The notes under the pieces: generated by a model | The model's input: only the letters and a program-made list of their open reading frames with translations | The model's database searches: none | What the model was told of the DNA's origin: nothing | Shown here: positions 3,796 through 53,889 of the stretch, one piece after another | How positions within the stretch are numbered: position 1 is the first letter of the stretch | Layout of the letters: every line of letters begins with the position of its first letter | Made by a program: the position numbers and the translations under genes | NCBI GenBank assembly: GCA_036172245.1 | Contig: JAYWIR010000034.1 | Location: 62,001-126,000, forward strand | DNA from: Raillietiella orientalis | Taxonomy: Eukaryota | Direction: 5' to 3' | Length of the DNA: 64,000 nucleotides

Positions 3796-4218
3796 TTACT
3801 TCCAGACCAATCCTTGTGACTTCAAATCTTCTCTTGCCAACTCTGTGAGCTGCAATAAAATAAGTATTTCAAATATGCAAATGACTTACTGTTAGCAATT
3901 CAGATGCAATTTCTGTGCTATCCTTCAACTGAAAGACCCGCCAAAGTAAAACACATATGAAAGATACCTGGAATAAGAAAATGTAATCAATTTCAATCAA
4001 TTCAAAATCAATAAATTTACAATTATAGTTTGATCTTGCAGTGAAAACATTTATAAAAAACTTACTCCACAAAAGAATATAATGTAAATTGGCAAGGGAA
4101 TGACAATTGTATCAAAATAAAATGTTGTTAGTGGGATCCATGATTTCCCAATTATGCATGTAATCCAAATACCAAATGCAGGAATGAGAAAAGTAATCCA
4201 CTCTACCATTTGTGACAT
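3796..4218 (-). CDS. DPM3: Dolichol-phosphate mannosyltransferase subunit 3 (94 aa, 3 coding exons)
   Basis: Exons 4218-4066, 3967-3890, 3849-3796 (GT-AG introns of 98 and 40 nt) give MSQMVEWITFLIPAFGIWITCIIGKSWIPLTTFYFDTIVIPLPIYIIFFCG|VSFICVLLWRVFQLKDSTEIASELLT|LTELAREDLKSQGLVWK*: two TM segments, PLP.Y, RV..D..A.EL..AR.DL..G, the DPM3 pattern and size. Confidence 0.85.
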
Positions 4219-6058
4219 GACTGTACTAGAACAGAGGAATGACTTCTGTTAATACGTGGCTTGTAATTGTTTCTGGAGCAATTACCTTACTAAGAGAGCT
4301 AGCACAATTAGTTGCAGAAACACCTATCCTTTCTGTCATTGCTTAAGTGCAACATGCTTTGCACATAATGCATGTGCAATGCATGCTTATACTGTTTACT
4401 CAAAATATAAATCTAATTTAGATAAATTTCAAAATATTTTTAAACATAAAAAGTGCATTTACGAAATACATTTTCTAAGAACTCATGAAAAATCTGATTC
4501 ACAGTAAAGAAGCTCAATTTGTAACTCACAGTTTTACCCATACGCTTTCTGCCTACTTTTTAATGAAACACAGGTCATTATAAATTACGTGAATTTTAAT
4601 GAAAGTCAAGATAACTACATTGAAGAACCATAGCAACCAAAAAAAATCTTTTTGAACTACCGTTTCGATTGAAGATAATGTAAACTGGTGAACCCTTTTA
4701 TGCTGGTCCATACTTCAGTGTGGGCCAGCAGAAAAGGATTTTGAGTTTCGAAACACTAATTTAGAAAGATAAAACACGATTAGGTTGAACTACATCACAC
4801 TAGTGAAAAAATAAATAAACAGCAGCATTATGCAAACAAGGACAAAAATAGGTGCTATGAGAAATGCATACATGCAAAGAAAACATGCAAGTGCCAAATC
4901 ACAGAAATAATCAACAATAATGAAACAATCAGCGGAATAATTTCCCAAGTATGCAATTGATTATTACAAAATCACTGTGCGATTTGAAACTGTAATGAAT
5001 TTGGCTTTTAATAGAGACAATGCTGTCTGAGACTAACCTGTATCCCTAATAAGATCTTTTTTTATTATTCACTTGATACTCGAAGCATTTAATGTTACGT
5101 AACAGCTCTCATGTAAGATCTGTAAGTGAATGACGCTTTTAAAAATAAATTCAGTAATTTACAAAAAATTTTTTGTAAATTACTGAAAAAATACGGTGGA
5201 AAACATACCGGTCAACACGCATTGACCGAACCTGTTGGGATGGTTGGTACACATACCACAATAAGCCAATAAGGAGAACTATTGTCCCATTAATGCAATG
5301 ATGATTTCTTAATGGTATAAAAATTTTCTTTAGCAAAACTTTTCTTCACACATCATTTTTTATTTTTGTGTGAACAATACACTGTAGACCACGGGTGCTT
5401 TTCGCTCATTAAAAGGTCATCATATACAAATATTGTAAGATCTCTTAGTAAATGATTTACTAATCACCTTTCAAGTAAAAGAAATAATTACTTTACATAC
5501 TTTTCACGGAAGGTCGTAAATACGATGATAGGAAAACCCTGCTAGAAAAATGCTCAATAAAAAATAAGTAAAAAAATACGTTTCGAGAGTTTCTTTTCTT
5601 TAATTCTTCTTCAATGGGTACTGTAATAACACACAAACAAAAATGTCTTTTCCTAACATTTCTGCATATTCTATGGTTTGTAAATACTATTTTTGAGATT
5701 TTTAGACTGTGTGAAACTTTAGGGGTGAGAGAATCCCTTTTGAAAATACAAGATAAAGAAAAGTGAGAAGAAAACCATAGTTCTGGAGAAGCATAATCCT
5801 AAAAAGTAGTCAAAAATAACTACATTTCATACATATATCAACAAAAAATGGAGAATATTGTAAAAATCCAAATGGTAAGGACACCTCTGACTACATATTA
5901 AGTAAAAATAACCTCACGATTTTCGAATTCAAAAGTAATAAAACTAATAAAAGGTCCTAAATACAATCGGAGCTAATTTACTTCACAATTTTGAAATGTT
6001 TAGAGAAATGGAGAGGAGCATCCTATAGATGAAGAAAAATTAACAAAAAAAGAATAGG

Positions 6059-6625
6059 TTTTCACTCGGGTGCGCTGGGGCGTTAGTTTAAAAAAAAATA
6101 GACACAGGAGTCCGTGGGACGTAACGTCCCACCGACACCGACATTCCAAGGGGGAGATAGGTCCACAACGATCACAGAGGGGAATGGGGAAATAGGAAAA
6201 AACAGCAAAGTAAAATAAAAAGGACAGTCTGTGAAAATGGGGGAGGGAGGAAGGAAGGAATCACATCCTGCGCTGTTGAGTCCTCTGCATCCTTTGCTGG
6301 ATGCCAGCGAGCTCTCTGTATTCCTGTCCAGATGGATCCACATCGAAGAGATCCACAGGAACCAGCAGGATAGGGAACACAATGGCTCTCCTGTCGTGCC
6401 TTCCTCTCTTGGCGTTGTTCCTGGAGGCGAAGGCACCGCATAGACAGCGCAGCACTGCGACTGCTGCAGCTGGCGACCAGTCACTCCTCACAAAGAGGTT
6501 CCACATTATGTCCGTGTGGTTGACCACCGGGATAAGGAGGGACCCTGAGAAACGTTTCCCGAGTCTGGAGGGCAATATACTTCACTAACAGGAGGGGAAG
6601 GTCTCTTTTTCCCGCACCTGGAACA
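6059..6625 (-). mobile_element. 5'-truncated L1/Tx1-like LINE 3' fragment
   Basis: Terminal motif rc AACTAACGCCCCAGCGCACCCGAGTGAAAA (6059-6088), shared GATGCAGAGGA..GTGATTCCTTCC block, CSRCG zinc-finger remnant at the 5' end; GC-rich island in AT-rich flanks. Confidence 0.7.
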
Positions 6626-6949
6626 GGTAAAAGAAAAAAGTAAAAGAGAGTAAATGATATTTTTTAAATGACTGTCTAAAGTTTATTCTTATTCTTATCG
6701 ATCACAATTATCGAGTCTTTGGTTCGGATCTTTTGCTTTCCATTGTATGATATTCTCATTCGCTTTGAAAATAGTTGTGAGACAGATTTTGAAAATTTTA
6801 AACTGATACCTTATTTCTGTTATATATATATATATCCTGCATTCTACGAAGAAGTAAATCTGTGATTAAAAATATTACACAGTAGTTCACGCTCTGAAAA
6901 TGGTAACATATATTAGAAACCTTAACAATATAACTTTTGCAGGCATACT

Positions 6950-8900: not shown

Positions 8901-9982
8901 TGAATATTATGTGTTCCAAGTGCATGAAGAGATAAAAATAGAGTATTGTGGTCTTATGTTTGTGACAGAATCCTTCAATGCAAGTTTCTGTAAACCTAGA
9001 GACTAAGATTTTGTGAAGGAGGACACTTAGAAGACTCTTGGAATGAATTCCAGTGCTTTCTTAAAACGATAGATAGAAAGCAACCATAGGAAATCATTAA
9101 GTAGCAATTAGCGACAGGATCTGACTAAAAAAATAAAAAGCTTTTTTAATTTGGTAAATGAGGCAATCACTTCTGAAGCTTTTAAATCGTTTAAATATCC
9201 CTTGGATAACGTTGAATTTCAAAAAAAGAGAGATTTCTATGGTGGAGCCTTTTGCTCAGAAGTATAAGGAATCCGTAAGAGAAGGAAACTGTCTGATCTT
9301 GACTAGATTCGCTCTTAGTGAAACAACAAAAAGTTACCCCCTGCATGTTCATTTATCCATCATTGCTGAGATTGCAAAAGTAAAGTCATTCCATAATTAA
9401 ATAATTTGCATTACTTTGAATTATGTCTATGAATTATTCATCATGTTTCTCCACCACGTTGCATTCGCCATTTACTATGGCAAATAAATGATGGAATGCC
9501 CAACATTTCGTTTTCATGTTTATGATTGTCTTTCAATATGATAATCTTTAATAATCATATGATTAAACTTTACTATACTTGACAACTAGTCTTGGCAACT
9601 ACTAGTTTTCTAAAAAGGTTTCATAATTGCAAGTTATACATCTATTATCATGAAAACTTCGGGTAGAAGCTTTATGATTCCTTCCACAAAAGCAGGGATT
9701 ATTTATGATGTTTCATATCCAAACAGATCTTCATGGTTGAAGATTCTCTATTCCAGAAAAGGGTTTTGCAGATCATCTTGAAGACCATCTTGTAGATCAT
9801 ATCAAACCTACTGCAGTCTCCCCTTCTGATGGCACTTCTGTCTGGTGGCAGATCCACCAGACAGAAGCTGCCTAATTAGGACTGCATTTAAAATCAAGTC
9901 ATTAAGAGAATGAAAATCGATGACAGAGTAAACTCTTCGCTCTGCGATTTGTCATGAACGAAAATCGAGCTAGGAAAACTCC

Positions 9983-10091
9983 TGAAAAGCACACATATCT
10001 TGAAATAACGATTGATGCAGAGATTCAGATATTCATGAAAAGCACACATATCTTGAAATAACGATTGATGCAGAGATTCAGATATTCATGA
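9983..10091. repeat. Exact tandem duplication, 53-bp unit x2
   Basis: tgaaaagcacacatatcttgaaataacgattgatgcagagattcagatattca at 9983 and 10036, followed by tga microhomology. Confidence 0.95.
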
Positions 10092-11780: not shown

Positions 11781-11789
11781 GTTCTACTA

Positions 11790-14015
11790 TTCTCCTGGTA
11801 GCTCGTTTCCTTCTTCAGTACTTTCCAGTCGCAGAGTAGCGTCCCAGGAGTTGTTTTCCTTCCTCCACACGTTTTGCTGAGCGCGTGCTGGGAAATCTCC
11901 TTCCTGTACTAAAGTCTCTTGCCACACAAAAGGCAGTTTGTGCGGTTTCCACAGGTTGGTGACGGCATCGAGGATTCTTTTTGTCCCCACAGTTTTTGTG
12001 GGTTTCTTCGCGCGCGCCTTCGTGTTTGCAGCCTCTGCTGGATTTCCCTCTCGCGAATTATCTTTCAAAGTGTGCTCCTCCTTGTTACAACTTTAACATT
12101 CTGTATAGAGACACCTCCTCTTGCGGTGGTCCAAACGCTGTCGCAGCTGGCACACATTTGGGTCTTGTTTGCAGACTACAGATCGATGAATTCCTCGCCG
12201 ACTTGCAACCTATGAGGTATCCCCACGGTAATGCGCACTACCGCGAAGCCGCTGGAAAGTTTCTCGTAACCAGGAGAGAGATTCGCCTTTCCCTGCAGCT
12301 CGTAAACCGTTCCAGAAACTCACAGTTCTCGCGTCATGTGGCCGTTCGTCATGCATCACTGCAGATCAATTCCATATTCTTATCTCCGCGTAACACACCT
12401 AGGGCCCTTTAAGCTCTTCCTGATTCATGCTAACCCTGCACAGCTCTTCTGAGAAGGGGCACGCAGTAGCAGGGGGACAAAGCCACTCACTTTGTAGATG
12501 AGCGATGAGCGTGGTCTTGTATCCCTTGTATCCCTGGACTCCGTCAGGGAGGCGCTGTTTTCTGCCAATGATTCCGGCATCTCTGCTGCTGCCACCTGAT
12601 CCCACAACTTGACTTGGAGACAAGTCGAAACTGTGGAGGCTGACTCCTCCAATTCCATTTCCCGGATCGGGAAGCTATCGCTCTTCTTCCCTGGGAGTCT
12701 GCTGTGGTTTTTTCAGCCACCATCGACAGGCAAACACTGCTACTCCCCTAAGACGAACCACACAAGGAACACCAGCTGGAGCTCACCACAGAGCTGCAGA
12801 AACCACGTCAGTCTGCTGTTTTAGGCAGTTTTCTCTTCCGACTGCAGCATTGTTGGCGATAATCCCAAGCGGGAGCACGGGGACGGTGTCTGGGAAGCAG
12901 GCGATGTCGTCGCTGCTTCCCAGACAGGGCGCTTATTTCTTACAACAAATATGCAAACAAAAGCAGCGGCAGGACTCCAGGTCCTACCGCGTCCAAATTC
13001 GCTCGGAAACACGCCAAGTCCGATGTTGTTGCAGAACTTGTGCTGCACTGGTTCCTGCTCCAGGAAGTCATCGTTCATTCCAGCAGGAGAGCGTGGACAG
13101 AGCGAACCTTCCTTGCTGTAGCGCTGCTCTCTCTGAAGAAGCAGACTGGCAGCAGCCTGCCAGCAAGATGGGAGATCGTTTGCGAACTGAGATGCAGAAG
13201 GAAAACGTTAGGTGCGTGGACCATGGGTCATCTGGGTGATTCTGTGGTTCCGAGTGCTCCACCTAAAGGACTTTTGTGCTGGACTGAGCTGCTAGGAATT
13301 CCCCTGGAAGGCCTCGAGTCGCTCCCAGTGCTATGGAACACTCGTACCCTCCCACTTAAGCTGCAGGAGCCAGCGATTCTTCTGGTTCTCCCACCCAGCT
13401 CCCACAGACATCACTGGACCCAGGACTGTATTCGCCCGAACTGTAGCAGCTTCAGGGAACGAGAATCCCTCTCGCGCCTGCTTGAGGATTGTGTTGCTTT
13501 TCGCTACCTATGGGAACGTTTTGCTACGACCCTGGGAACCCTCGAAAGCAATTCCAGGGACGCATTGATAACCCTCCTCGTAAGCAACGCCTTTCGGCGA
13601 GCAGCCTCGCTAGCAGCTTTCTGCTGCCTAAGAAGGACTGTGGCTGTCCGGACATGGATGCCATCCACTTTGCGGTCCGCTTCCTGAGAATGGCATCAAG
13701 ATGACCACATCCTGGAAATATGCAGCCTGAACTGCCTGACATCCTTTAAAAAATGCAGAGGATGCCCCTAAGCGGACAGCGATTTCTTCCCAAACCCTCG
13801 AGAGTGTTTTTCAAATTACTTTATTCCTTCTTTAATTTTGTTTTCTTTTTGTTTGCTTCCGTCCTCTCTGCTGTCCAGATGATCCGCTCTGGCCTGCATA
13901 CCGGCAACCCTGCAGGTCCTTTGACGGGATGGACGCGGTTGAAGAGATCGTTCTAACACTGCCTTTGCGCGTTTGTTCGCTGCAGGAAACGCACCGACGC
14001 AACCGGGTGAGATAA
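11790..14015 (+). mobile_element. Internally deleted Tx1/L1-like LINE: ORF1 with two decayed CCHC knuckles, APE, RT thumb remnant, 3' tail
   Basis: GKFLVTRREIRLSL; SEKGHAVA and RRCF..RHLC knuckle remnants; FLLQEV and HLGDS APE remnants; LLPKKDCGCPDM (PK..GGLG.P-like); family tail block at ~13750 and terminal motif AAACGCACCGACGCAACCGGGTGAGATAA at 13987-14015. Confidence 0.65.
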
Positions 14016-14300
14016 GGAATGACCCCGGAGCTTTGACCAGGGAGGTTCACCTCTGCAACAGAGGGGAGGAGAACAAAACGAAAAAGAAAGCAAAATGATA
14101 ATAAATAAGCAAAACTTCTTCAATAAATACGAAAACGTTCAGGTGGTGGTAGGGTTCCGGAAGGGGACACGGTCTGTTGGGCGGTGCTTCCTGCTCTTAA
14201 AGCAGCAGCAACCCTTGAGTCTTCCTTCGACTTTTTGTCATGGGAAGATGCTCCCTTCCTTTCCAGCTCGCTTCCCTCTTCTCGAGGCTGATCTGCTCCC
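14016..14300 (-). mobile_element. Same-family 3' tail fragment in inverted orientation
   Basis: rc acagaccgtgtccccttccggaaccct...ttttgctttctttttcgttttgttctcctcccctctgttgcag aligns with plus-strand gcggacagcgatttcttcccaaaccct...ttttgttttctttttgtttgcttccgtcctctctgctgtccag (13772-13878). Confidence 0.55.
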
Positions 14301-15849: not shown

Positions 15850-17453
15850 TATGGACATGACTCGGTTTAAAGCAGTCTCATGCTGCTCCTGCGGAAAGAA
15901 GCTGGAAAGTCTTCCTTCTTGCTAGATCTATAGTGCCATTCCGTGGAGCAGACGCCGGTAGGCATTAGCGCTGATAGTGCGGGATGGGTACAGTATCAGT
16001 TCCCTCCTCCAGACTCTTTTGCAGCCCTACAAAAATCTCCTTAATGTCCCCCAGTGAGGAAGCCATCCATCATCTTGCGCTGCTTCTGTTGATTCACGTC
16101 CTTGCGATGCAGTCGTGTAGGTTGTCATGTTCCACCTCGCTAAAGTTTTCTCCTTGGACGTGGTTCGTAGAATAGCACTCGAAAGTGTCCACCATACCCC
16201 CCCCCCTCCCCACGTGAGACGGATTCGGTCTCCGTATTGGATGCAGAAGTTATCGGAGACGGTGTTTCTCTTTTCCAACATCCGAATTTTTTCATTTTAC
16301 TCTAATGCATGCAAATCCACTCTAGTTCCAGTACTTCGAATAGGAGAGGTCACGGATGCTCAATCTCTCGGTACGCCTGCATTCTCAAGTTCCTGTCGAC
16401 ATACTGCATCTCAGCAGGATAGGTAGACAATGTGATTCGATGCAGTCCACGCCGTGGATGGGTCGAGTTGCTTACAGTCGCCTCGATGATTTCCCGATGG
16501 CACAGTAACCTATTGGAGATGTGGGAGTTTTTCTGCTCCATCGCGGGAAGGACGAAGCTGCTTGGTGGCCGGAAGACGCACGAGGTGGTGGATGCTGGCA
16601 CTTCTCGTGCTGTGGGGACAGGAGTCCTTCGGTGGAGTGAACCTTTGAGTGTCGCCTCCAAGGAACTTGTGGTTTCTCTCCAATGCCTGGATGCTTCTGT
16701 GTTCCCGCTCTCCTGGAAACAGGTTGTGCTGCTTTTTATTCACTAGGGATTCTACAGTGCAACGTGCTCCGGCATCCTCGTTTTCTCATGGGTGGCATTC
16801 CCGAACTGTGCCAGGCTGCCTTTGGACTGCAGTGCCTCCAGGAACTGTGGCGGAAGCTGACATCAGCACTCCTGCATCAGGACACCACCCGAGATGTGCT
16901 GCGACGGTTCTTTGCGCCGGGGGGACTATCGACGGGCGCGGTAATCGTAACTAAGAGTTGCATCCGTGCCATCGTTACGGCCCACCATGTGCTCGAGACG
17001 ACCACGCAGCTAAGAGAGGTCACCGGGATTGCAGCCACCTACATGGACGGTGGTCTCACCTGGAAGAAGAAGTGAAAAAGATCACCGGCATCCTGCGCCG
17101 GTTTTGAAAGGAAGGAACGGCGGACACCGATGATCGTTGTCCCTAGCCTCCCTTTATTTACTTCTTTTTTTTGTTGCCCACTCCCTTTCGCCCCGGACTT
17201 TTCCTAGCATTTAATACATTTCTCCCGGTGTCTGCGGAGCGAACCCAAAGACCTTCTCCAGTCTCTCCAGATTTCCTCGTTTTGGGGGTTACCCTCCATT
17301 CCCTCTCCTCCTTCCCGTTTCGGATTTTCGGATATCCCACCCTGAGTGTCGATGGACCGTCCCTCTAAAATTCTTTTGTTTCCTGTTAGGGACTGTATTT
17401 CCAACTCGTCTATTTTTTATAAAATAAATGCCCAAGCGTGACCGGGTGAAAAA
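15850..17453 (+). mobile_element. Decayed L1/Tx1-like ORF2 C-terminal part and 3' tail
   Basis: zf-RVT-like segment (QC..ELWRKLTSALL..DVLRRFF) similar to the 35.4-35.8 kb copy; ends AATAAATGCCCAAGCGTGACCGGGTGAAAAA (17423-17453). Confidence 0.7.
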
Positions 17454-21000: not shown

Positions 21001-21387
21001 ATGCGCCCACGCATCTTCGAACCTTTTCAGGAAAACTTCCGAACTTCTGTGTTCGACGGCAAAAATCTTCCAAATGTGTGATAAGCATTTTGACAGGATT
21101 GGCAATCGCTATGCATTCTGCGGATCACACGTCCTTGCAGATCGACGTTTCACGTGGTAACCTAGGAAGGAGGAATCCCTCCAGCCTGTTCGGGAAGAGG
21201 CGCTCCCTGTCCAAGTGGACGGGAGACGGGGAGCGATGCCTGCAATTAGTTTGTTATTGAGCGCTCGGCGCCTGCATCTGGACCAGACGGCGCTCGCGGG
21301 TGTGCGCGCAGTTGCCCGCGCGCAGCAGCTGAGGAGCGTCGCCGGAGGTGAGCCGCCGCCTGCCGCAGGGAACGAAGTCGCAGCGCA

Positions 21388-23868
21388 ATGGGTGACGAGC
21401 TGAAGGCAGCCTCGGATAAGGTCGAGGAGATCGCAGACGCCAAGAAGGAAGTAGCCATGAAGGAGGAGACCAAAAACGAGATGAGGGCGGTCGTCCTGAC
21501 AGGATTCGGAGGCGTGAAGTCCGTGAAGGTGCAGAAAAAAAACTTGCCAACCCCGAAAAAAAACGAACTGTTGATTAAGGTAAAATCATGGTGAGTGAAT
21601 CCGTAAATTCTTGCACGCATTCTGATCCACAGTGTTAAGGATGTTAAGATGCTGGTTGCTCGAGCGAATGCGGTCTCTGAAGATACCATATGGTATCTTC
21701 AGACACGCAGAGCAACCGACTTCGTGTGCACAGTTTTACCAAGAGTTTCACGTATCGGAAATGTACCACGGTAATTTTGCCCTAAACGTACCTTAATAAC
21801 TCATCTTCGAGTTTTACACAAAAAAAAAACTGTGCACACGGTTACGGAAAGTAAACTATGCATATGGCGAGAAACAAAAACCGGCAACCAGATGCAAGTC
21901 ATTAGTGTTACTGTACATACAATGTTTGTTTTGACATCGCAAAAGTGTTGACAGACTGTGCGGAGTTTTGTGTTTACAAAGTAGTTCCTGTGCAATATTG
22001 GATTTTTCATACGTCGTGGTGATGTACGTACAGCCGAAATAAAAATTGAGTGACTTACGTCAATACCAATGTACGTGATTTTGTTTAAAAAATTGTTTGC
22101 TTACAAACGGATGCACATTGGATCGTGAGTGTAATTAATAAGGAAGCCCCACAGGGAATGTCGTCGTGCATTTTTCCCGAATTTAGGTTCATTCTCAGCG
22201 TGGAAGGAGTAACAATTAATTTCTATGATGTGATTCGTCATTATTTCTTAGCCTATTGATCCTTAGTCATGTTTCCGTTTTATGATTTATTCTCAATTTT
22301 TTTTTTTCAAATCTCATTCATATTGTTTCATTGATAGTCTAATATTCGACATTTGTGGTTCAAAATATTTTTTTTTTTTTTACTTTTAGTTTTGTGTATT
22401 TGATGTTTTGTGGTCTGCATAAAAACTTATGCATGTTTTCATTAGTAGTACTATAGCTACAGAACCAAACAAATGAAAAACCAATGTTATTATTCTAATA
22501 TACATGGCAAATGGTTTTAGTTACTACGCAAATTCTCTTTGTATATAGTGGATTGAACTTTCAAGATTTAATGGTTCGTCAAGGAGCAATCGACTCTCTT
22601 CCGAAAGCTCCATTCATTATGGGATTTGAATGTTCTGGAGTAGTTGAGTCCGTTGGAAGTGAGGTTACAAATTTTCAGGTGAGCAAGCTGGCTGAGTTAC
22701 GCAATTATGTGTGCGCAGATAGGTGACCGAGTCTTTGCTCTAACTGAATATCAAGCATGGGCTGAGTATGTAGCTTGTCCTGTACTATATGTGTACAAAT
22801 TGCCTGAAAAGATGACTTTTGAAGAAGCAACTGCTCTTACTCTGTGTTATGTAGTAGCTTATATCATTTTGTTTGAATTGGGCTGTCTAAGTCCAGGAAA
22901 AGTGGTCTTGCTCCACTCTGTTGGTGGAGGAGTGGTAAGATGGTCTCAGTGGATACACCAAATCGGATTTGTAATCAGGGTCAAGCTGTAGCACAGTTAT
23001 GTAAAACAGTGCAAGATGTAATTGTAGTTGGAGTGGCTTCTAGCTGCAAGCATGATGCTATCAAAGATTCAGTGACATTGCTCGTAGATCGAAATCAAGA
23101 TTATGTAACTGAAGTTAAGAAGTATGTATACAGTAAAGCAGAGCTGTCATTGAGTGATTTTGCAGACAGTATCCTGTTGGGGTAGATATTGTTTTGGATT
23201 GTCTGTGTGGAGAAGACTGTAATCGTGGCTATAGCCTATTGCGTCCAATGGGAAAATATATTTTATATGGTAAAGTTGTGTAATTATGTGCGTTCGTAGT
23301 TCATTTATCTTCATAGGTACATCCAACATTGTAACTGGGGAGACCAAGAGTTTCTTCACTATGGCCAAAGCTGTAAGTTTGAATTTGTGCAATTTATTGA
23401 GATTGATTCTTTGGGATAGTGGTGGCAAGTGGACAAAATATCACCTCTGAGACTGTATGATGAGAATCGCAGTATCAGTGGTTTTAGCTTGCGTCATTTG
23501 TTGTACCATCAACATCAGGAAGATTACATACGTCGGATTGTGGAAAAAGTATATGGTCTGTGGGAAAATGGACAGCTTAGTCCTCATATAGACTCCATCT
23601 GGGCGTTGGAAGATGTAAGTCCTTTAACTTTACATCATTGTAGACACACCAAAAGAACAGGTACCAGAAGCCATGCAGAAGATGCATGATAGAAAGAATG
23701 TAGGAAAACTACTTCTGGATCCAGAGCGTTCACCAGCTTCCCAGCAGCCTGAGGCTAAGCAGGCTGAAAATCAAAGCAATGGAAATGGAAATGAAGCAAA
23801 AGAGACTGCATCAAACGGTACTTTGATGTTTCAATTATAGCTTATCTGGTGTCTTAGATATCAAGTAA
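21388..23868 (+). CDS. VAT1L: Synaptic vesicle membrane protein VAT-1 homolog-like (MDR/quinone oxidoreductase family), ~404 aa, 9 exons
   Basis: Exons 21388-21590, 22549-22678, 22719-22934, 22979-23121, 23166-23269, 23317-23372, 23420-23614, 23661-23817, 23858-23868, all GT-AG and in phase. Motifs EMRAVVLTGFGG, CGLNFQDLMVRQG, GFECSG, LLHSVGGGVGQAV, WWQVDKISP, EAMQKMHDRKNVGK. The last 11-nt exon is uncertain (unspliced stop at 23840). Confidence 0.93.
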
Positions 23869-28773: not shown

Positions 28774-31700
28774 TCACCATAATACCGGAAGCTTAAGATT
28801 AGAAAACCCTGGATCTTCTCGTGCTTGCCAGTACAAATTTTTAAATTTCCAACATTCTTCACTATTCTCTTCCACTTTGCTAAAAAGATGAAAGTAGACC
28901 ACTGTACAGATACTATCAGATCACTTACTGAAACCACTGTGGCTCATAAACATACCCACATTCATTCATATGGGCAATTCTTTCACGTTGAAGTTGTTCC
29001 AACTTTTGTTTGACCTGTTCAGCTTCCTCCAAACTGCCTTTTTCAAGAAGTCTACAAAAATATTACTTGAAATGGACAGCTTACAACCTCTGATCAGGAC
29101 GAAGTCGAGAGTCAGTACATGGAAGCCATTTTTCCAAATCTTGAGTCAACTCATTGAGTTCAATGGCAAATTGGGTAAATCCATAATACAGGACATGATT
29201 CTCAGGAAAAGGGTATGGGCGCCAAATACATTTTGCTGACTTTGGAGCTACACCACTATACAGCCCCTCATTCCATTTTCCAAATACATTTTGTACAAGG
29301 TCTCCATTTGGTCTCATCACAGATCCATGCACTTCACCATAAGAACCTTTTAAGAATGTCAATTGACATGATAATTGATTACTACGACAATTGATAAGCA
29401 TTTTGCCATAATGGTCAATCCATGGTTGACCACCAAACAAATTGTGCACACATGTTGTTAGCTTATTCCATTCATAATCTTCGGACTGAGAATCAGATAG
29501 ACAAAGGTGAAGTTGTACCCTTCCTGAAATTTGTTTTTACATATTATGAGGACACTACTTATTACCTTGAGGAAGAAGTTCAAGAGATTTACCCCAAAAT
29601 TTCGTTTTGACAGATATTTCTTCCAAGAAATGAAAGTATGTAGATTCAGCATAGCCCACACTGATAGGTGGGTGATGACTAACTTGCTCTGCAACAAAAC
29701 GAAAGCCACGATCTTCCCTAACACATTCATATGTCTCCCCCAGAAGAGGATTGAATGGTTTTTTTCCAGATCGTGCAGCCAGTGATCCATACACAGAAAC
29801 AGCAAATGCAGCCACCACCAACATACGTTCTACTGGATCAGATAGCTTCACAGCCTGGAGCAACAATTCACTGTATTCAAGTTCCTCACAAATGCGCTGC
29901 AGCATGCTCAGTGGTTCATTCATGATCACTGGCATTGATACACGTGATAAATCACGACCAATATTTCGGGTAAGCAAAGCCCATAAATTTGGAGAAGAAT
30001 CTGTAGGTTGAAGTGCAGGCAACTGAGTGCGATGTTTTGTAGCTTTAGGTTGGGCACAAATGTCTATATCTGTATTTTAAAACACTTCATAATATTACAC
30101 TTCACCTGTGTTTTGAAGAAAAGGTGGCAGCATGCACTCACTGAGATCACTGATCTCGCTACTGTCAGTATCACTTGATGCAGAAGAAGATGCTGTGTGA
30201 TATTCAAGAGCATCAAAGTAATCTGAAGCACTAGCATAGGATATCCTGTCCAGAGAAACTGTCTTGTCAGTGTTAACCTGCAATAACTAGTACCAAATGT
30301 TCCACTAACAATGACTTACCTCCTTCCTTAAAGACATCGAAACACCTTCACTTTGCTGGTTTGCCTGCTGGAAATGCTCTTGCATCTGAATGGTTTCAGG
30401 CAATACAGAGTGTGGAGCACCTAAAACTTGTCCTGAAGGCTCCTGAACACCAGAAATTGAAGATACAGAATTCACTACATCTTGTAATTGATGAAGCACT
30501 GTATCCTATCCATTATATGCATTAAACATGATGTCTATCTACCCAGAATTGCAAGATTTATCCAATCCAGAAGACTACCATAATCCACTTGTGCTACAGC
30601 TGGCACAAATGAAGATGATGTGCCTTGCGTAACATCCACTCCTTCTTTATTGGGCTGCATAAAACATTAATGAAAGAACTGCATTGCCAGGTTATGTTGC
30701 ATGTAATAAAAAATAATTATGTATAGAATATGATATACCAAGTCTGGAGCTGCCTGGGAATCTATTTTAGGAAAGTTTTTGCTCTTCTCTTTCTTTTTAA
30801 TTTTTTTCAAGGATCTTTTTTTCAAAAATATTGACAGAACCAATAAAATGCGCAACTCACCTAAACTGCATTTCTTTAGGGATGCCATCCTTCATTTTCT
30901 GTAAAAATGAATTCAATACAATAAGATTGTTCTCAGTAAGATGCAGCTGATACTTGATTTGCTGAGATTTTTTCTGGAGAAACAATTCTGAAGGTTTTTC
31001 TAAATCTAATGCACTTGGGCCAACAATATCCAGCTTTTCTGAGCCTACCAGGCTAGATGCTATGCAATTTCCGACTTTAGGGGTTCCATGTAAAAGAAGA
31101 TTCTGTCTGAATAAGCGATGCTGTTTAAGTTGTTCTAGCCATTGACAGAATAATTCTGCAGATTTGATCTACATGGGATAGTGCCTGTTTTTTCTTAGTT
31201 TACAAACCTTGAGATGATAAATGCAGTCTTCAGCATCTATATCAATTCTCTTGCTGCTGGTCAGTGTTGAAATCACTGCTAATCCCACATCCACCAATCC
31301 ACGAGTTTTTCCTCTACTGAGATCAGAAGTACTTTTGGCATAAGTTAGAATGCCCTTCTTGATGCTAAAAAATCTCTAGAGAAAAACATTTTATTTAATG
31401 CGCATGAATTTTTTTTACTTTATGCCATCCCTTCAGAGGCCATTTGCGTTTTTTAAGAAGATAACTGCTAAAGTCATGTGGAATTATGTCGAACTTTTCC
31501 CCCTCCTGCAAGCCTTGTATAACTTCCCAACTGTCGTTTTCATTTTTTTTTTTTCTAATTTTCTTAACATCCTGTCTGGCATCTAGATATTCTGTAGTAT
31601 ATGCATTCTCGTTACTGTCTTCCTAAAATGTCATATTAGTTCTAAGCAGGCAATGAAGTGTACATAGTTTGCATATGTAAAATATCTACAAGTCTTTCTT

Positions 31701-34996: not shown

Positions 34997-35794
34997 TTTC
35001 ACCCGGATATGCCGAGGCATTTATTTAATAATAAAAATACAGGAAAATTTTCTCATGGCGAGCCCATTGGCTCACCACACCAAGACAGCTTGCTTCTTGC
35101 CGGCCTGGAACGGCGAGGTCCTTCCGACGCGCTGGGGTTGGGATACAAGAAAACAAAAGAAACAAAAAGTTTAAAAGTGGGGAGGGACCCACTGTTCTGG
35201 GGATGGGAGGGCGGGGAGGGAATCACAGTGCGCGCGGAACGGTCCTCTAGATCCTGTTCAGGATCCTCACAAGCTGCGTCCTTTCTGCGCCCAAATGGCG
35301 CCACTTGCACACGCTTCGCACGAAAAGGCGAGTCCAGTGTAAGGCGTTGCCGCAGGCTTGGCGCCTTCTTCTTGTCGCGTTCCACGATCCCTCATATGCA
35401 GCAGAGAACTGCTACACAAGCGGGCAGGGACAAGGCATCACGAGAGAAGAGGCTCCTAAAAACGTCCTTAGGGGCGCCTCCGCGGATGTCCAGAATCGCC
35501 GCAAGACGATCCCAGAGAGGGCGGATGGCACTGCATTCGAGAAGAAGGTGGGGGAATGTCTCTTTTTCCCCGCGCCGGTCGCACTGGGAGTACGCAGCCC
35601 CCCACGTGCAGTGATACAGGCGTGCTTTGAAAGGTAAACCCCAATGTACCACAAGCAACGCCACCTCCTGCCATTTCAGGGGGAGGGATCCACTGTTCCA
35701 GGACGCTGGGGGCCACTTCATCTCCTCCGGAGATAGTCCGAGTAGGTCGCCCCAGCGTCGAATTCCGTTGGGCGGGACACTCGGCGTCGCAGCA
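34997..35794 (-). mobile_element. 5'-truncated Tx1/L1-like LINE (zf-RVT + 3' UTR) with 14-bp TSD
   Basis: ORF ...WNSGSLPLKWQEVALLVVHWGLP..CDRRGEKETFPHLLLECSAIRPLWDRL; terminal motif rc AATAAATGCCTCGGCATATCCGGGTGAAAA; exact TSD cataaatactgtgt at 34983-34996 and 35795-35808. Confidence 0.9.
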
Positions 35795-46431: not shown

Positions 46432-49400
46432 ATGAAAGCTGCTGCACAATTTTTGCAGTATGTATATTTAATTTCTTTGTTTCTTTTTATTGGATAATGC
46501 ATTGCTAGTTTTGCCTACTGTTTTAAAATTTTTTAATGAATACATAGACCATAATTTCAGACAAGCTGAAATTCTCAAAAATAAATTAAGTTGTTCCAAG
46601 GATATTTACAGTGATCATGAAACATGGGTCTGTCATCAAGATCTTCAGGTATTTCACATTTATGATTTTCAAATTCAGCATTATCCTTTCTTGAGATGTT
46701 TGCAATACCAATCCATGCTATTCAGGATCTCAGATTTTTGTAAAAATTCGTTAATATTTCGTTTTTGTTAAGATTTTTGTATTATTGAGTCTATCAAAAT
46801 CTGCTTAAATTGCGCACTCATTTGAGTAGGAATTGTGCTATGTATCCATTCTAATTTTATCATGCATCTGTGTTCATTAAAGGGCATTTAGAGAAATTGT
46901 GATGTTTTTTTTCATGTAGAATAATTCATTTTCTTAGATTGCAATTTACTTTATAACTATTCTGATGGGTGAATCAATTAAATATGAGAATGTATATATT
47001 TGTACTTTCCATCATACAAGTACATTTGGCAAACGTAATTGTTGATAAAAGCAAATTAACCATCTGACCAGTAACCCTGAAGCATAAAATTATTTATCAG
47101 TTTTTGTTATCAGTTAAAATTGCATGCATTTTTAAAATCTCAACTGAATGTTAAAACTTTATTTACTAAACGTTGAAGTTTTATGAAACATTTCAAATTT
47201 CTGCATTTGTTCGTCTGTCTGTAATTTATTATTGTATTAATTTATATGCATACATAACTGCTTTATTTATGAAATATGGATTTTTTGTATAGGATTTGTA
47301 TTGGCAGATTTTGTTGATGGATTTGGAGCATGCACTGGATAAGAAGATTGAGCAAGATCTGTGGAACTTTATATTTAAAAATCAAATAACTGTTTTACAG
47401 CATCAGACAAAAGAAAGGAAGGTGTGTTTTCGATACTTAAGGAATTTGAGAATGCTATTGAATTTTTGACTGACTTTTCTTTGCAAACTCTTGTTAAAAG
47501 TAAACACATTTTGAAGAATATTTATGATTGTGCCTGTTTTTCCAAGATTAGGATTCGAAGTCATTCTTTTTGGACATTAAGATATTGATGTTAGTTCTAT
47601 ACTTTAATGTTGATGTTAGGATAATATTCAGAAGTTTTGAATTATTGTTTGTTCACGTCTTGGATCATAAATGCAAAGATTTGAGAAAGTGCTCGTTTTT
47701 CTTTCATACTGTTTTGAGGATCAGTTGTTTTAGACAATTAGTTTTAGGTACAATAATTGTTATGTATTTGCTCATTTCAAAAGATCTATTTTTAAGTTGT
47801 GTTTTCTTTATATTCTGGTATCTGTTAATGTGGGAGCTTCTTTAGGCACATTCTGTAGTTTAATGTCTTTTCATGAAATTCTAAGATATGTATATAATTA
47901 ATGGCTAAACGTTTCAAAGTGATTAATTTTCAAGACTGCTTGGTTCAATTTTCATCATGTTTTATGCTTCTAATATCAATTGCAAAATTTCAGTGCTCTT
48001 AGAAGTATTCTTAGTATGCTGTTGTGACATTACACATTCAAACATCCATGTTTTATTTGAGAATGCTTTGGTTTCTGTTTTCATAATTTTGTAACAGTCT
48101 GTCCAGTTTTTTCTATTGCTGTTGTGGATTCTTAATTTATTGGGAATTAATTTTACAAAACTGGACAACAAACTCCTTCACTGTTGAGTTACAATTTGAT
48201 AATCTTTCTCATTTGTCAAATGAAAAAGACAAATCCGGAATGAATTTACTATGTTGGTTTTTGTTCCTTTTCACATTGGTCTGTTTCAGCATTGCTGCAA
48301 AACAGCTAAAAAAGTTTTTTCTTTCAAATGTATCACATCACAAGTTTGTTTTGTTGATTTTTTATTTTTTCTCATAAAATTAGGAGTTTTTAGATTGGTG
48401 TTTGAGAGTGTTTTGTATGGTTTTGCATGCTTGTAAGCATGAAATTATACTTTTGGCAGACTGGATATTCAAAAAAGGCTTTTTGGTACATTTTCAGGGT
48501 TTAGCTTTTAGTAATGAATGGTCGTTCTTTTTACTGTTGGTGTGGTGTTTTACTAATTCTTCAGTTAATCCTTCCCTATTCACATAAAACTTATGCAAGT
48601 CAAAAAATTTTCGAGTATTTCTTTTGTAATGGTAGTTAAAAATGAAATTCACTGAAATCTACTGAAGTTTGATGTTCCTTTTAAACCTTTTGGAAAATTA
48701 TCTATTAAAGTTTTGTAACTAATTTTTCTTCATGTTTGTATTTGAATTTTTTTTAAAATGACATTCCAGAAAATTGAGTGTTTACGATGAATTTATACTT
48801 TAAATAGCAATAATAAAAGGGTTAATAGAGGGTTAATCTCATAAAACTGAGACCAGAATTTGCATTATTTCTTTATTTTGGAACTTTATTTTACTATCTC
48901 ATTTTCTTAGGGCAAGGAATCTTGAAACCTTGAAATTTTAAGCTCATCCCCCCCCCCCCTCCCATACCTTTTGCCCTTTTATGATTTTTACTGATATCTC
49001 TGACAGATTAAGATAGTGTTTATAAAATACACATATTTTTTGCTAAGTATGAGATATTTTGTATTTTTTTGTTTTGAATTTTTTTTGTTTTTGATGAAGC
49101 TTTATTTTGAACTTTGCATTTTGTACTCATATCATCAAGAAGTTTTTTTCTTTTTTCGTTTTTTTTTTTTTCAAATTGGTTTTTGCAAAGATGCTTTTTT
49201 TTTGACCAAACGATAATGATAACTTAATGTAGTTTCTTACAGTTTTTACATATATTTTGTTCTTTTGCATAATTTGTTGATAAAAGAGAAAAAAACTTTG
49301 TCAAGTGTCCCTTGTCATGCTTTTGGTGCCGAAATTTGTGTTGTAATGTTTGAATAATATAAATTTTCAATCATTTTGTCATGTTTTTTCGTAATGTCTC

Positions 49401-52400
49401 TTTGTTAACTTCTGTGTAGCTTAATTACTTGAAGCATTGCTTTTAATGTAAGCATGAACAACTAGCTTGGAATCAAGGCTAATTTTTACAATGGGCTGTA
49501 AATAAAAGTGGGATATTCCACTGTGTTTTTGTTTTTAATTTTTATGTTAAAGGTTTAGAAGATGTTTTTCTGCAAGCATGGAGATTGTGAATGTTAGTAA
49601 TCAACAAAATGGGCTAGGTGAACAATAAAGGAAGGAAATTACGAAAAGTAAACGAAGATTTAGTAAAAAGAAGTGTTTCTTGCAGAGTTTTTCTCATGTG
49701 ATATGCCTACCTGTGGAAACAGCTTATGTATTAAGGGTATCTTTCTCACAATGACCTTTCACTGAGAATCTTCTTTTGTTTGTTTTAGTTTCTTATTCTA
49801 CATTCTACATGCTCCACAGCTATAGTAGGCAGTCTTGATATGCCCAGAGCTGTGTTGAATTTTTCTCTATTGCTATTTGAGATATTAGTCATTTATGTGT
49901 TCAGCAGTTTCACTGTCTTGTTTGCATTCATTATTAAATCACATAAATGTGCTTTTCTTTACATTTGCTAGAGTGTTGTTTCTCATATGCTTTCTATTGC
50001 TTTTATGTCTTACAGTGCTATGTTACATAAAAATCATATACTCATGCACTCTAGGTAATTCATTTTCTTTCTATCAAGGCAACATGGTGCCCGTCAACAA
50101 TTTTGTAATATTTTGGCATTAATGTCCAGAAGAATTGCCATAAATTTTCATTAGCTATTACCAGTCTTATTTAAATATTAAAATATCAAACTGAGAAACG
50201 TGATTCATCAGATATTATTTGGTGCAAATTCATAGAAGAAACATAGCCTCACTTCTCACCCCATATCAGGATGATTATGATACATGTTTGATTATCATAC
50301 AGGATGATGAAGTGAGACCTATGCTTCTATGATTTCTGGCAAATAACAATAGATCAAATCCCCAAGTATGTGTCGAGTTTAAGAAAAGTTTTAAAGAGGA
50401 AATTTCATCCTGTATCCTTGCACATTGAAATTTTCAGCATAGTATCTTTTTCTGTAAAATGTAAAATCGTATTGTGCATAGGTCTTATAAAGTGTTTTCT
50501 ACATGGGTGTTTTTCATAGTATATGTTCCTTTTAATGTAAAATTCAATTATAACTAAAATATTGATTAAACAAAAAGAAATGACTGATTGTCCATTATAT
50601 AAATGCTGCAAGTAAATGGGAAAATGTGCTCATAATAGGGTTTTTGAAATTTCGTAAAATAACTAGAAAGTTATTTTTCTGTTGTTCATCCTTGAAGTCT
50701 CGGTTCTATTCTTAAAGTGGGTTGATTCTGTGTTAATTTCAGGCAGCAATGTTCTCCCCCCCCTCCTCTGTAGAAAACAATTTTCTAGTTTTGGGTTATA
50801 TAATTTCCTTGTTTAGTCTCCTATTCTGTGCTTTCAAGGAAACACTTTAATTTGATTTTTTTATTATGTTTTTTAGCAGAGTGAGAGTAGTGCTGGTAAT
50901 TGAATGTTCATTTCAAAATTATTACTGTAACTAGAATTCTTGTTTTCATTTTGAGTTTAGATGTGATAAAAATAACACAGGCATCATTTTAGACCAATAA
51001 AATCGCACAAGCACAGAGTTGTTTAAATGCATTTTTGGATTTGGCCAGTGGTTTCTACTTGAGACTTTTGCAAGAAATTTGCTCAACATTTAAATTGGAT
51101 CTTCCTTTTAGACGGTGGGTTAGTATATGGCATTCACAACAAGTCTTTCCTTTTCAATAGCAATAATTCCTTGTTTGGATCGATTAGACAGTCAGAATTG
51201 CAGGAGGGATTGGTGCAGCCTAATCGAAGTTCATGCTTATATATCTGTCAATACTGTTTAGTACATCTTGGTGATGTGGCCAGATATCGGCATCAGACTA
51301 CTCAAGCAGAAGGGCTATATAGGTAGGTATTTGGTCTTACATGCATAATCCAGAATCTTTCATGTTAGGCATGCGGCTTTTTTGGTACCCAGCAGCGGCC
51401 AGCCTTATAATCAGTTAGCTTTGTTAGAGGCTGCCAAAGGAGATCGTCTGGCTGCTGTATTCTATTATGCACGTAGTATTGCTGTGTGCAATCCATTTCC
51501 TGTAGCTTCCACCAATCTTTTCAAAGTTTTGGAAAAAGTAAAAGAAGAACGGTGAGCAATTCTCAGATTTGGTTTCTAATGTAAGATTGTATGCATATAG
51601 CATTACTGTTTCAAAAAATGTGAATCTCTCTGCTAAAGAATTTGAGCAACTTTTTCTTCATCTACAAGCAGCATTACATTTGGATGTAGCTGCTAGTGAG
51701 ATAGATGGCCTGCTGTTTTCTTTGACAAATAATGTAACTCCCCTCATAGTAGTTAATAATATCAGTGCTTCGAAGTGTATTCAAGTAAGGCAAGATAAAA
51801 CAGATTGAATACTGTGTTTATTCCAGATAACTGCCATTATTCTTTACACACTTTGGCAGTTTTCTGAGAAATCAACTTCTCCCACCTCAGTATCCAAATC
51901 TGATTCGAGAAAAGAACATGTAGGTTCTGTGTGCGTTGAACTGCTTGCAAGTCTTCTTGAAGCTCTTCTCTTAGCAGCATACATCCAACCTGCTGAAGTT
52001 TCGATTTTGGAATTTCCTTTGTTGTCATCTAGTAAGGATATACTTTGAACGTTGCCATATCATTGTCATTCTTGCAGTAAAAGTTGTATTAGATTGGGTG
52101 CGTGTGGACAGTAATGTTTTACAGAAGGATGCATTTATTCAACATCCTCATATTTGGTCTGGTCTCTGCCATTTGTTGAATAGGTTACAATCTGAATTAG
52201 CTGATTCACAGATGGCAGTTTGTGAGTAACATGTTCAGCATCGTATGTAAATTTATTTGTGTGCTACTCCAGATAGCAGTACTCCTTTGCCAGAAGAACA
52301 AGAATTACAAGGTTTTCTTCCCCTGAATTCAGTGCTGTCTGCATTCAGGTAATGAAATTCTTTTCTTTGATTGAGCTATATATACTCCTTAGATTGAAAA

Positions 52401-53889
52401 ATGGTATACAGCTGTTTGATAAGAAAAGAGTTTTAGTGGTAAGAGCATTCCGCCTTATTGGATTAGGCAAATGGCTCACCAAACAACCAACTGCAGGAAC
52501 TGCATTGCTGTCTGTAGTTGACTCCAATGGGGTTCCTACCTTCACCTCTTCTGAGACTGTTCCTCCTGATCTGATCAAACAACTGAAACAAATTAGCCTG
52601 GACAAAGATTCTAAAGATGTTGCTTTGGTGCCCTTGGAAGGCGAATGTAGTTCTTCTGAAGTTGAAAATGGTATTGGTCAACCATTTTTAACGCCTAGAA
52701 AACCAGGCATTTTGAAAAATCAACCATCTCAAGAATCTTATTCAAAAGAAAAACTATATAAAGAGAAAGATACAAAGCCCAAAAGTCTATTAACATCTGC
52801 AGGCGCCAAAAAAATTCGACAGAATATTGCATTGCAGACTATTATGAAAAAAGGTAATGCTTCCAGTGTTACTGAGCAAAACAGATCACGGACTGACAGC
52901 AAACAGGCTAGTGAAAATATTCGTACACATAGAGTTGTAAACATTGCAATGCAGGTGACTTTCAAAACACCATCATCATCTCCTGTGATCCTGCCAGCAT
53001 CTCATCTTCCTAATGCATCTCTTTCATCAAATGGTACTGGCAACCGCACTTTGTGGGCAAATGTGGCTAAATGTCCTGAAAAAGCCACAAATCCTTCTGC
53101 TCTGCCACTTATTGATACATCATCAGGCAGCACTGGATTCTACACGTCTCCTGATAGCATTTTGTCTCCATTTCATTCTTCTCTTTATCACAATGCAAAT
53201 GCTGAGAATTCTTCATTGTATTTATCTTCTTTGGATCATGCTATGTCTAAACAGCAAACTAATTTTAAAAATGACTATGCTGATCAATCTAGCAGTTCCT
53301 CCCATTCTACTTGGTGGCAGAAATCTAAAGATCAGCATTATCTTCCAACTGTGTCTTCTGCATCAAAATTTCTCTCAAATAGCAATGGAGCAACTTTTGA
53401 CACAAAAAAGTCAGAATCTCTGGCTAATGGTTCTTCTATTGTATCAGCTTATAGCAGTCCATTCTGTAGTGTCTCTCATGTGCAGCCAACTTCTAGTACT
53501 GGACAGTTTGCTACATCTACTTTCGCACAGGCTGTAGGACATAACCAGGATGTAAGAGTTTCACTTTTTAATTAGATGTTAAGTCAGTTTATAGAAACCA
53601 TGGAAAGAAGATACATTCTCTAAAAAGCCTGACTCTTCTGAAAATGCTTCTAATACCTATTCCTTGTTTAACAGCCCATGTTTGATTCCCCAGCTGGGAA
53701 GTAATTTGTGGAACCCTTCAGCAACCAACACATGGTCAAATGGGGAAGCTACTCCACAGGTATATTGTAGTTTGTAAAAAAAATTCTATTCTTTTGTAGT
53801 TTTCGTTTTGGGCCGAGAATTTAGGCCCATCACCATTGGAGCGTCTTTTGCAGCAACAGAAGCAGAAAAAAGATTCTTTTCCCAGTTGA
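46432..53889 (+). CDS. SMG7: Nonsense-mediated decay factor SMG7 (EST1/14-3-3-like TPR domain), ~910 aa, 13 exons
   Basis: Exons 46432-46457, 46561-46648, 47293-47421, 50993-51114, 51161-51322, 51369-51551, 51601-51784, 51827-52031, 52078-52221, 52273-52348, 52393-53551, 53595-53759, 53800-53889, in phase. Motifs DLEHALDKKIEQDLWN.IFKNQI, CQYCLVHLGDVARYR, PSSGQPYNQLA, PLPEEQELQGFLPL, C-terminal PSPLERLLQQQKQK; no PIN domain. Confidence 0.93.

Follow-up and report, generated by a model that had tools for sequence, protein, structure and literature searches.

In flukes, judged by their genome sizes, a short intron mode is not tied to a small genome, and the acceptor consensus of Caenorhabditis elegans introns is TTTCAG. 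Modal lengths have been fitted across many animals by Gotoh 2018 (PMC6157073), whose two-component arthropod table (106 rows, one of them a tardigrade; the three-component tables may hold lower modes) has its lowest first mode in Tribolium castaneum at 47.55 nucleotides (nt), then Leptinotarsa at 51.63 and Onthophagus at 52.94, with Drosophila melanogaster at 58.65, Lepeophtheirus (salmon louse) at 59.43, Daphnia at 64.18 and Tetranychus at 68.26. The sections of that paper drawn on here also give nematode modes of 45.87 (C. elegans), 43-44 (Strongyloides) and 44 (Steinernema), and fluke modes of 34.57 (Fasciola) and 32-33 (Schistosoma); across sources, fluke modes span 32-39. Gyrodactylus has modes of 32 and 58 (PMC4040987), while myxozoan modes are 22-27 nt and the introns of myxozoans and Dicyema lie below 30 nt with reduced signals (PMC13644364). 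In Drosophila, ultra-short introns of 40-50 nt are spliced with a half-life of 2.7 rather than 1.7 min and carry a branch motif at -14, the minima being about 35 nt from donor to branch plus 10-15 nt (Pai et al. 2017, PMC5762160); the corresponding donor-to-branch estimate for the B complex of humans is about 52 nt (PMC6692369). Low-CpG housekeeping genes of the honeybee have far shorter introns than its high-CpG genes (Zeng and Yi 2010, PMC2975444), a polarity that is reversed in humans, where small introns sit in GC-rich genes (PMC6883713). Here we analyse a 64,000-nt stretch of animal DNA (the window; positions 62,001 to 126,000 of contig JAYWIR010000034.1), in which four genes are interrupted mainly by introns of 36-51 nt, together with the 210-Mb, 491-contig genome from which it comes. 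On the sequence evidence set out below, these very short introns are real, and a mode of about 44 nt extends beyond the window.

We built models of the four window genes (DPM3-like, VAT1L-like, ORP and SMG7) from numeric coordinates. All four have open frames, and together they contain 30 introns, every one with GT..AG ends; 26 of these measure 36-51 nt and the remaining four measure 84, 98, 958 and 3571 nt. The 26 short introns had been reported in the original prediction, and the coordinate models returned the same lengths in each gene (VAT1L 40, 44, 44, 47, 47, 46 and 40; DPM3 40; ORP 43, 39, 46, 44, 42, 36, 42, 36 and 49; SMG7 46, 46, 49, 42, 46, 51, 44, 43 and 40), with homology-only alignment recovering them where homologs exist. 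Our models of ORP and SMG7 start 3' of their 5' exons, where the three further introns of the original total of 33 probably sit. We take the zinc-type alcohol dehydrogenase-family gene to be VAT1L-like, and the DPM3 label was carried over from the original prediction, exon 1 having given no Pfam match when searched. The features, in window coordinates, are as follows.

3796..4218, minus strand: DPM3-like gene, 3 exons, 94 amino acids; open frame
3850..3889, minus strand: DPM3-like intron, 40 nt; frame and GT..AG only
3968..4065, minus strand: DPM3-like intron, 98 nt; coordinate model
21388..23868, plus strand: VAT1L-like gene (zinc-type alcohol dehydrogenase family), 404 amino acids in 9 exons; model and homology
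21591..22548, plus strand: VAT1L-like intron, 958 nt; model and homology-only alignment
22679..22718, plus strand: VAT1L-like intron, 40 nt; model and homology-only alignment
22935..22978, plus strand: VAT1L-like intron, 44 nt; model and homology-only alignment
23122..23165, plus strand: VAT1L-like intron, 44 nt; model, with the same length at a 4-nt offset in the homology-only alignment
23270..23316, plus strand: VAT1L-like intron, 47 nt; model and homology-only alignment
23373..23419, plus strand: VAT1L-like intron, 47 nt; model and homology-only alignment
23615..23660, plus strand: VAT1L-like intron, 46 nt; model and homology-only alignment
23818..23857, plus strand: last VAT1L-like intron, 40 nt; model only, beyond the aligned part and least secure
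28774..31622, minus strand: ORP (OSBPL3/6/7-type oxysterol-binding protein) gene, 11 exons modelled, without its 5' end; model and homology
28880..28928, minus strand: ORP intron, 49 nt; model and homology-only alignment
29052..29087, minus strand: ORP intron, 36 nt; model and homology, gap-free in 115/116 covering homologs
29524..29565, minus strand: ORP intron, 42 nt; model and homology-only alignment
30070..30105, minus strand: ORP intron, 36 nt by the model, or 42 nt by the homology-only alignment via the next in-frame AG at 30064
30278..30319, minus strand: ORP intron, 42 nt; model and homology-only alignment
30499..30542, minus strand: ORP intron, 44 nt; model and homology-only alignment
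30655..30738, minus strand: ORP intron, 84 nt; model and homology-only alignment
30815..30860, minus strand: ORP intron, 46 nt, AAG acceptor; model and homology-only alignment
31169..31207, minus strand: ORP intron, 39 nt; model and homology, gap-free in 101/103 covering homologs
31376..31418, minus strand: ORP intron, 43 nt; model and homology, gap-free in 101/101 covering homologs
47293..53889, plus strand: SMG7-like (EST1-family) gene, 11 exons modelled, without its 5' end; model and Pfam
47422..50992, plus strand: SMG7 intron, 3571 nt; coordinate model
51115..51160, plus strand: SMG7 intron, 46 nt; coordinate model
51323..51368, plus strand: SMG7 intron, 46 nt, separating the EST1 and EST1_DNA_bind matches; model and Pfam
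51552..51600, plus strand: SMG7 intron, 49 nt; coordinate model
51785..51826, plus strand: SMG7 intron, 42 nt, in-frame stop; coordinate model
52032..52077, plus strand: SMG7 intron, 46 nt; coordinate model
52222..52272, plus strand: SMG7 intron, 51 nt, in-frame stop; coordinate model
52349..52392, plus strand: SMG7 intron, 44 nt; coordinate model
53552..53594, plus strand: SMG7 intron, 43 nt, low-complexity; frame evidence only
53760..53799, plus strand: SMG7 intron, 40 nt, low-complexity; frame evidence only

Of the 26 short window introns, 19 would disrupt the reading frame if retained, and the other seven, which are divisible by three in length (3n), each hold an in-frame stop, so none can be coding. 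Independent placement came from spliced alignment on homology alone (GT..AG obligatory, flat penalty, 15 nt minimum, other intron ends being invisible to the aligners). For the VAT1L-like gene, all seven covered introns were returned with the same length, one of them slid by 4 nt, and the spliced protein matches one from Owenia over 367 amino acids (56% identity); the alignment needs just one gap, which falls clear of the junctions. For ORP, nine of ten introns were exact, the tenth (30070..30105) lying in a poorly conserved stretch. Junctions in the conserved domains of ORP, those of the 43-, 39- and 36-nt introns, are gap-free in nearly all covering homologs, and those in its variable regions in about half. 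Less secure are the introns of the DPM3-like gene and of SMG7, for which frame and splice signals are the main support; in SMG7, Pfam EST1 and EST1_DNA_bind match two of four exons tested.

Beyond the window, the short class was recovered by two further routes. The best 30 of 145 kinase matches, aligned to a profile of unrelated kinases, gave 54 introns by homology only (23 loci on 16 contigs), of which 38 measure 36-56 nt, one is shorter than 36 nt and one falls at 57-70 nt. For ab initio calls we took 79 10-kb stretches at even spacing through the genome. A gene model trained on its own calls, its length prior flat from 20 to 120 nt, found 196 introns there, in 25 genes holding two or more; on reversed sequence it called six. 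The model follows length when length is altered: with 21 nt added, 108/193 calls moved to 60-79 nt, and with 15 nt removed, 77/189 moved to 25-34 nt. Pfam profile positions continue across five calls, of 50, 44, 49, 46 and 46 nt. Fitting one Frechet and a flat term over 20-120 nt placed the mode at 43.7 nt in the even sample (bootstrap 42.4-45.0), 43.8 nt in the kinase introns (41.8-45.5), 41.6 nt in the window and 43.9 nt across all 431 introns (43.3-44.5). In that full set, 267 introns measure 36-56 nt and 29 measure 57-70 nt, and the 5th percentile of the 30-60-nt class is about 37 nt. The length distribution in the sampled sequence thus has its mode below that of flies, and the short introns probably represent the minimal-intron class of this genome, with a mode of about 44 nt and a lower edge at about 36-38 nt.

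The splice signals of this class are conventional. Donors read MAG/GTRAGT (the slash marking the splice site), acceptors are U-rich over the 6 nt from -10 to -5 and end in YAG, and donor and acceptor profiles are similar in the 267 short and 110 long introns. With GT..AG ends, both consensus sequences, and frame and homology restored on removal, these are ordinary U2-type introns as far as prediction can tell. U12-type introns have a long invariant U12 donor motif, which was seen neither in the 30 window donors nor in the 12 commonest donors. The absence of a TTTCAG consensus, noted from the window, holds across the sample (19/267 short introns). Between -11 and -25 there is a modest enrichment of branch-like motifs (126/4005 versus 50/2403 positions, p 0.011), three of five branch patterns being enriched there (p 0.002-0.02). 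The motif has weak peaks, which lie at -11 to -15 when the intron measures 44-47 nt and at -16 to -20 when it is longer; these positions would leave about 30-34 nt from the donor to the predicted branch point of a modal intron, compared with the fly minimum of about 35 nt. In the short class, acceptor scores are a little lower (5.6-5.95 versus 6.1-6.3 bits, a difference of 0.2-0.7 bit), and the pyrimidine tract is truncated, the U-rich stretch being confined to -10 to -5 and the longest run averaging 5.3 nt.

Three other candidate signals were set aside. An excess of AAG acceptors in the short class was looked for and not seen (22/267 short versus 8/110 long by the model; 3/38 versus 0/14 by homology). 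A TGCAT-like word beat mononucleotide shuffles, had no positional preference and was rejected as a by-product of CpG decay. An excess of stop codons in 3n introns (71/83 versus 131/184) was not used as evidence because stop-free 3n introns are under-called.

The short mode is not uniform across the genome. Mean GC content in the sample is 51%, with AT-rich islands, and composition is strongly mosaic (33 to 66% GC in the 79 stretches). The AT-rich stretches are CpG-depleted and hold intron-dense housekeeping genes; developmental and receptor genes lie in the GC-rich stretches, and their third-position GC content (GC3) reaches 0.87. Because the first gene model sees AT-type genes only, a second was trained on GC-rich, Pfam-confirmed open reading frames (ORFs). 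Genes were divided into an AT class (GC3 <0.55, CpG observed/expected (o/e) 0.3-0.6) and a GC class (GC3 >=0.55, CpG o/e about 0.9), the latter comprising homeobox, G-protein-coupled receptor, cadherin, PAN-domain and similar genes. One gene of the GC model, a reverse-transcriptase element by Pfam (L046), was excluded from the class counts and included in the trimming test below. In the even sample, 96/196 AT-class introns lie at 36-54 nt; in 14 GC-class genes the corresponding count is 0/63, with 24 at 55-120 nt and 37 longer. The median intron per gene is 48 nt in 59 AT genes and 77 nt in 13 GC genes (p 1e-5), and among GC-class introns of 36-120 nt, 0/24 at 36-54 nt compares with a flat expectation of 22% (p about 0.002). 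When 39 GC-class introns were trimmed to 42-46 nt, the GC model found 32 of them again, so model blindness does not explain the gap. The classes also differ in pyrimidine fraction (GC 0.74 versus AT 0.57), longest pyrimidine run (10.3 versus 5.3 nt), GGG per intron (1.68 versus 0.15) and intron/exon GC (0.62/0.60, that is no contrast, versus 0.35/0.42). The short mode thus seems confined to AT-rich, CpG-depleted genes, and GC-rich genes seem to avoid introns below about 55 nt.

The CpG depletion of the AT islands suggests that they are methylated; two DNA-methylase loci were found in the genome. In the window, the first exon of the VAT1L-like gene and the DNA upstream (21161-21590) are GC- and CpG-rich, with CpG-depleted gene bodies downstream (o/e 0.25-0.55), the pattern that would be expected of gene-body methylation.

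An explanation has to accommodate these lengths together with a canonical donor, a 6-nt U-rich stretch and YAG, the presence of the splicing factors searched for, and restriction to AT-rich, CpG-depleted genes. Our preferred reading, to which we give a probability of roughly 0.6, is a low steric floor to which introns shrink only in genes that are locally compact and AT-rich. Introns would be recognised by intron definition, using the usual set of splicing components; the floor would lie at about 36-38 nt and the optimum at about 44 nt, and housekeeping genes in methylated AT islands would have been trimmed to that floor by deletion. GC-rich genes, with long C/U tracts, G-runs and no exon-intron contrast, would need room for auxiliary signals and stop at about 52-60 nt, the same machinery serving both classes and the tract and G-runs presumably playing the limiting role. 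The spliceosome of this lineage would then tolerate a shorter 5' site-to-branch distance than that of the fly, through a quantitative change.

Several observations weigh against this reading. Between the two classes, differences in GC content cannot be separated from those in methylation and gene function, and the GC class comprises 14 genes of the even sample, 18 overall. GC-rich kinase loci hold one homology-supported intron of 52 nt. Within the AT class, intron length and intron GC are uncorrelated (rho -0.09, p 0.10), and RNA folding was rejected as a cause of the longer GC-class introns, there being no excess over shuffles (z -0.34 +/- 0.21). Two of the five branch patterns are not enriched at -11 to -25, and the 36-43-nt introns show no clear branch-motif peak. 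The gene model recovers just 21/30 window introns and 15/19 clean kinase introns, despite training seeded on them, and it made false calls of 25 nt in RPB2, contradicted by Pfam or homology, and of 43 nt in a GC-rich kinase, which Pfam and homology corrected to 73 nt.

A derived change in the spliceosome is possible. A lineage-wide change in B-complex geometry, U2/U6 helices, or the use of SMU1-RED or SPF45 could set the optimum of about 44 nt, with GC-rich genes not yet compacted. The peak is sharp, as this would predict; the mode lies 15-20 nt below those of Drosophila (58.65), Daphnia (64.18) and Lepeophtheirus (59.43) in the tabulated values, and the introns of 36 and 39 nt that homology supports are too short for the minima given for the fly (PMC5762160), and shorter by far than the roughly 52 nt estimated for humans between 5' site and branch point (PMC6692369). 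We nevertheless consider it unlikely, since U2AF65, SF1, RED, the PUF60-like gene and U12 look ordinary, signals are canonical, and the avoidance of 36-54 nt by the GC class, even against a flat expectation, points to sequence context. Those same 36-39-nt introns also tell against an unchanged arthropod spliceosome in a parasite that has drifted into the slow 40-50-nt class by deletion bias and relaxed selection on splicing speed. Flies do splice such introns, if slowly (PMC5762160), short-class acceptors here are slightly weaker, and short modes recur in parasites such as flukes, Gyrodactylus and myxozoans. A narrow mode with a steep lower edge (20/431 introns at 36-39 nt versus 118 at 42-46 nt) looks more like an optimum, however, and free-living Tribolium and Caenorhabditis have similar modes in the published tables, which makes drift improbable in our estimate. 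Both accounts are compatible with a low floor reached under local compaction and AT-richness, and neither is mutually exclusive with it.

That the short introns are artefacts of annotation or assembly (frameshifted pseudogenes, wrong acceptors or assembly deletions) we regard as highly improbable. The junctions are predicted from sequence and some model calls below 36 nt are false; set against this are gap-free homology at the junctions, a full donor consensus, the shift controls, and a single mode obtained by three methods on many contigs. The original prediction had inferred a spliceosome with a shifted minimal intron length that genome compaction did not explain. At 210 Mb the genome is not miniaturised, in agreement with that view; the mode itself is not uniform, being absent from the GC class. 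As the mode is limited to AT-rich genes, compaction of a gene class and base composition matter, though compaction of the whole genome does not. The idea of a spliceosome shifted uniformly and independently of compaction thus has partial support only.

The splicing factors searched for were found. Genes for U2AF65, SF1 and RED, and one that we take from its domain order to be PUF60-like, look ordinary and themselves have short introns. A full-length U12 small nuclear RNA (snRNA; L135:1501-1661, 98.7 bits) is present, and the minor spliceosome seems to be retained in this parasite. The survey for loss or divergence proposed with the window was thus carried out for U2AF65, SF1 and RED, and no loss was found among these, the PUF60-like gene and U12, SMU1, SF3B1, PRP8, U1 and U6 being outside the search. 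The genome has 15 G-patch loci, among which SPF45 may lie. A second, degenerate-looking SF1 copy lies on another contig (L138; C19:3516129-3519296) from the intact gene on C50. The U2AF65 model (L128) has about 40 extra residues within its second RRM, between introns of 376 and 46 nt; these may be an error of the model or may reflect alternative use of a 3' splice site.

A U2 snRNA with an altered branch-recognition segment was considered and rejected. The four best U2 matches (L123:1501-2489, L124, L125 and L126, on contigs C3, C34, C30 and C389) begin at about nt 39-40, right after the branch-recognition segment; they lack the first 38-39 nt because they sit behind retrotransposon-like ends, and the canonical segment was found in a fragment. 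DNA upstream of the match in L123 encodes what we take to be a restriction-like endonuclease-type C-terminus, which gave no Pfam match. Of 5,640 candidates, 47 were scored, and none of these proved to be an intact U2 gene (46 U2 matches listed). The truncated copies fit Utopia-type retrotransposons, for which U2 genes are the target (PMC4640811).

The animal was placed using COI from a small mitochondrial contig, compared with a set holding no Branchiura, Raillietiella or other crustacean rows. The best matches are Armillifer (77 and 76%) and Linguatula (75%), with nearly all insects and others at 71-74%. In a tree of 20 rows it groups with pentastomids at 100/100, outside Armillifer and Linguatula, at a point where long branches meet. 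Rare residues point the same way: 34-38 of 96 are common to each pentastomid and at most 13 to any of 117 others, while a long-branch mite has 8/95 in common with all three pentastomids. Mitochondrial copies occur on nuclear contigs C50 (93.5%) and C33 (79.6%), which also carry short-intron genes, and the mitochondrial lineage therefore belongs to the nuclear genome. A copy on the window's own contig (L032, C34:2039718-2040903) is a relic with 34-43% amino-acid identity to all COI, too old to link. The ORP exon has 53-70% identity to insects, mites, crustaceans, molluscs and echinoderms alike, with no pentastomid among the 120 matches listed. The arthropod affinity proposed from the window thus narrows to Pentastomida: the animal is probably a pentastomid (tongue worm, a parasitic crustacean) outside Porocephalida. 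It is possible that it is a branchiuran.

The mitochondrial gene order is trnY, trnW, cox1, cox2, trnD, with trnD directly after cox2; the missing trnK between cox2 and trnD presumably fits pentastomids and fish lice. The cox1-cox2 gap of about 550 nt (L006:1692-2313) contains a 108-nt segment twice, at 78% identity. COX1 matches lie on many contigs (54 in total), as nuclear mitochondrial copies of all ages from 93.5% down to 34-43%.

The large intergenic DNA rich in transposable elements that had been described for the window was partly checked. Of the sampled bases, at least 7.4% match another stretch, and 1,574 window bases match the 79 stretches; Pfam matched none of the three long window ORFs. 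Dispersed repeats at window positions 13269-13942, 16621-17173 and 35381-35794 each have up to 3-7 matches in the 79 stretches.

For the question of what sets the minimal intron size of a species, this genome supplies an arthropod lineage that has come independently to a mode of nematode length, with neither the acceptor of nematodes nor a small genome. The contrast between classes within one genome is more useful here than a 4-nt record, and if the AT and GC floors truly differ, the spliceosome is not the sole source of the size limit. A speculative extension, for which we would offer odds well below even, is that tongue worms have the shortest arthropod mode measured and that a single spliceosome works with two floors, one of about 36-44 nt for methylated islands rich in AT and another of about 55-60 nt for unmethylated, GC-rich domains, with minimal size set by sequence context (tract length, G-runs and exon-intron contrast) on a derived, tighter B-complex geometry; genes crossing a border would switch floors midway and, if this is true, provide a built-in test of what limits intron size. 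In practice, these genes will be annotated wrongly by gene finders whose length priors are modelled on the fly.

A mode below 50 nt does not fall outside the arthropod range, as had been supposed, given Tribolium at 47.55 nt (Gotoh 2018). The mode here is about 4 nt lower, fitting methods differing, which puts it a small margin below every arthropod in the two-component table, and a short mode is itself a recurring, known state. A supposed 40-nt peak in Tetranychus was rejected as a parallel, the mode being 68.26 nt (PMC6157073) and the median 96 nt (PMC4856440). In the literature searched, with most subscription papers outside it, we found no intron sizes for pentastomids or branchiurans and no composition-dependent intron floor for an arthropod. 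Like Tribolium in the tabulated fits, this genome combines a sharp sub-50-nt first mode, holding about half of the introns, with a long tail; it differs in its mode of 43.7-43.9 nt, in belonging to a crustacean rather than an insect lineage, and in tying the class to AT-rich genes. Rhabditid nematodes have an equal modal length, the mode here lying within the 42-48 nt of the C. elegans type, and differ in the TTTCAG acceptor that is lacking here. The ultra-short introns of Drosophila, as described by Pai et al. 2017, resemble ours in length, short pyrimidine tract and, less clearly, in a branch-like motif near -14, where our 44-47-nt introns have a weak peak; in the fly they are a slow minority below a 60-70-nt mode, whereas here they are the mode itself and reach 36 nt. 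Flatworms, myxozoans and dicyemids likewise join a parasitic lineage to a short mode and retained spliceosome parts, with introns of 22-39 nt in the cited accounts and signals reduced in myxozoans and Dicyema; here signals are full and introns below 36 nt are rare. The honeybee contrast, as reported, concerns overall lengths, and here it is the lower edge of the short class that differs (about 36-44 versus 52-60 nt). Human introns dependent on SPF45 or on SMU1/RED share the truncated pyrimidine tract and the short 5' site-to-branch distance predicted here (PMC8363638, PMC6692369); they form a small subset in humans, and short introns are the bulk class here.

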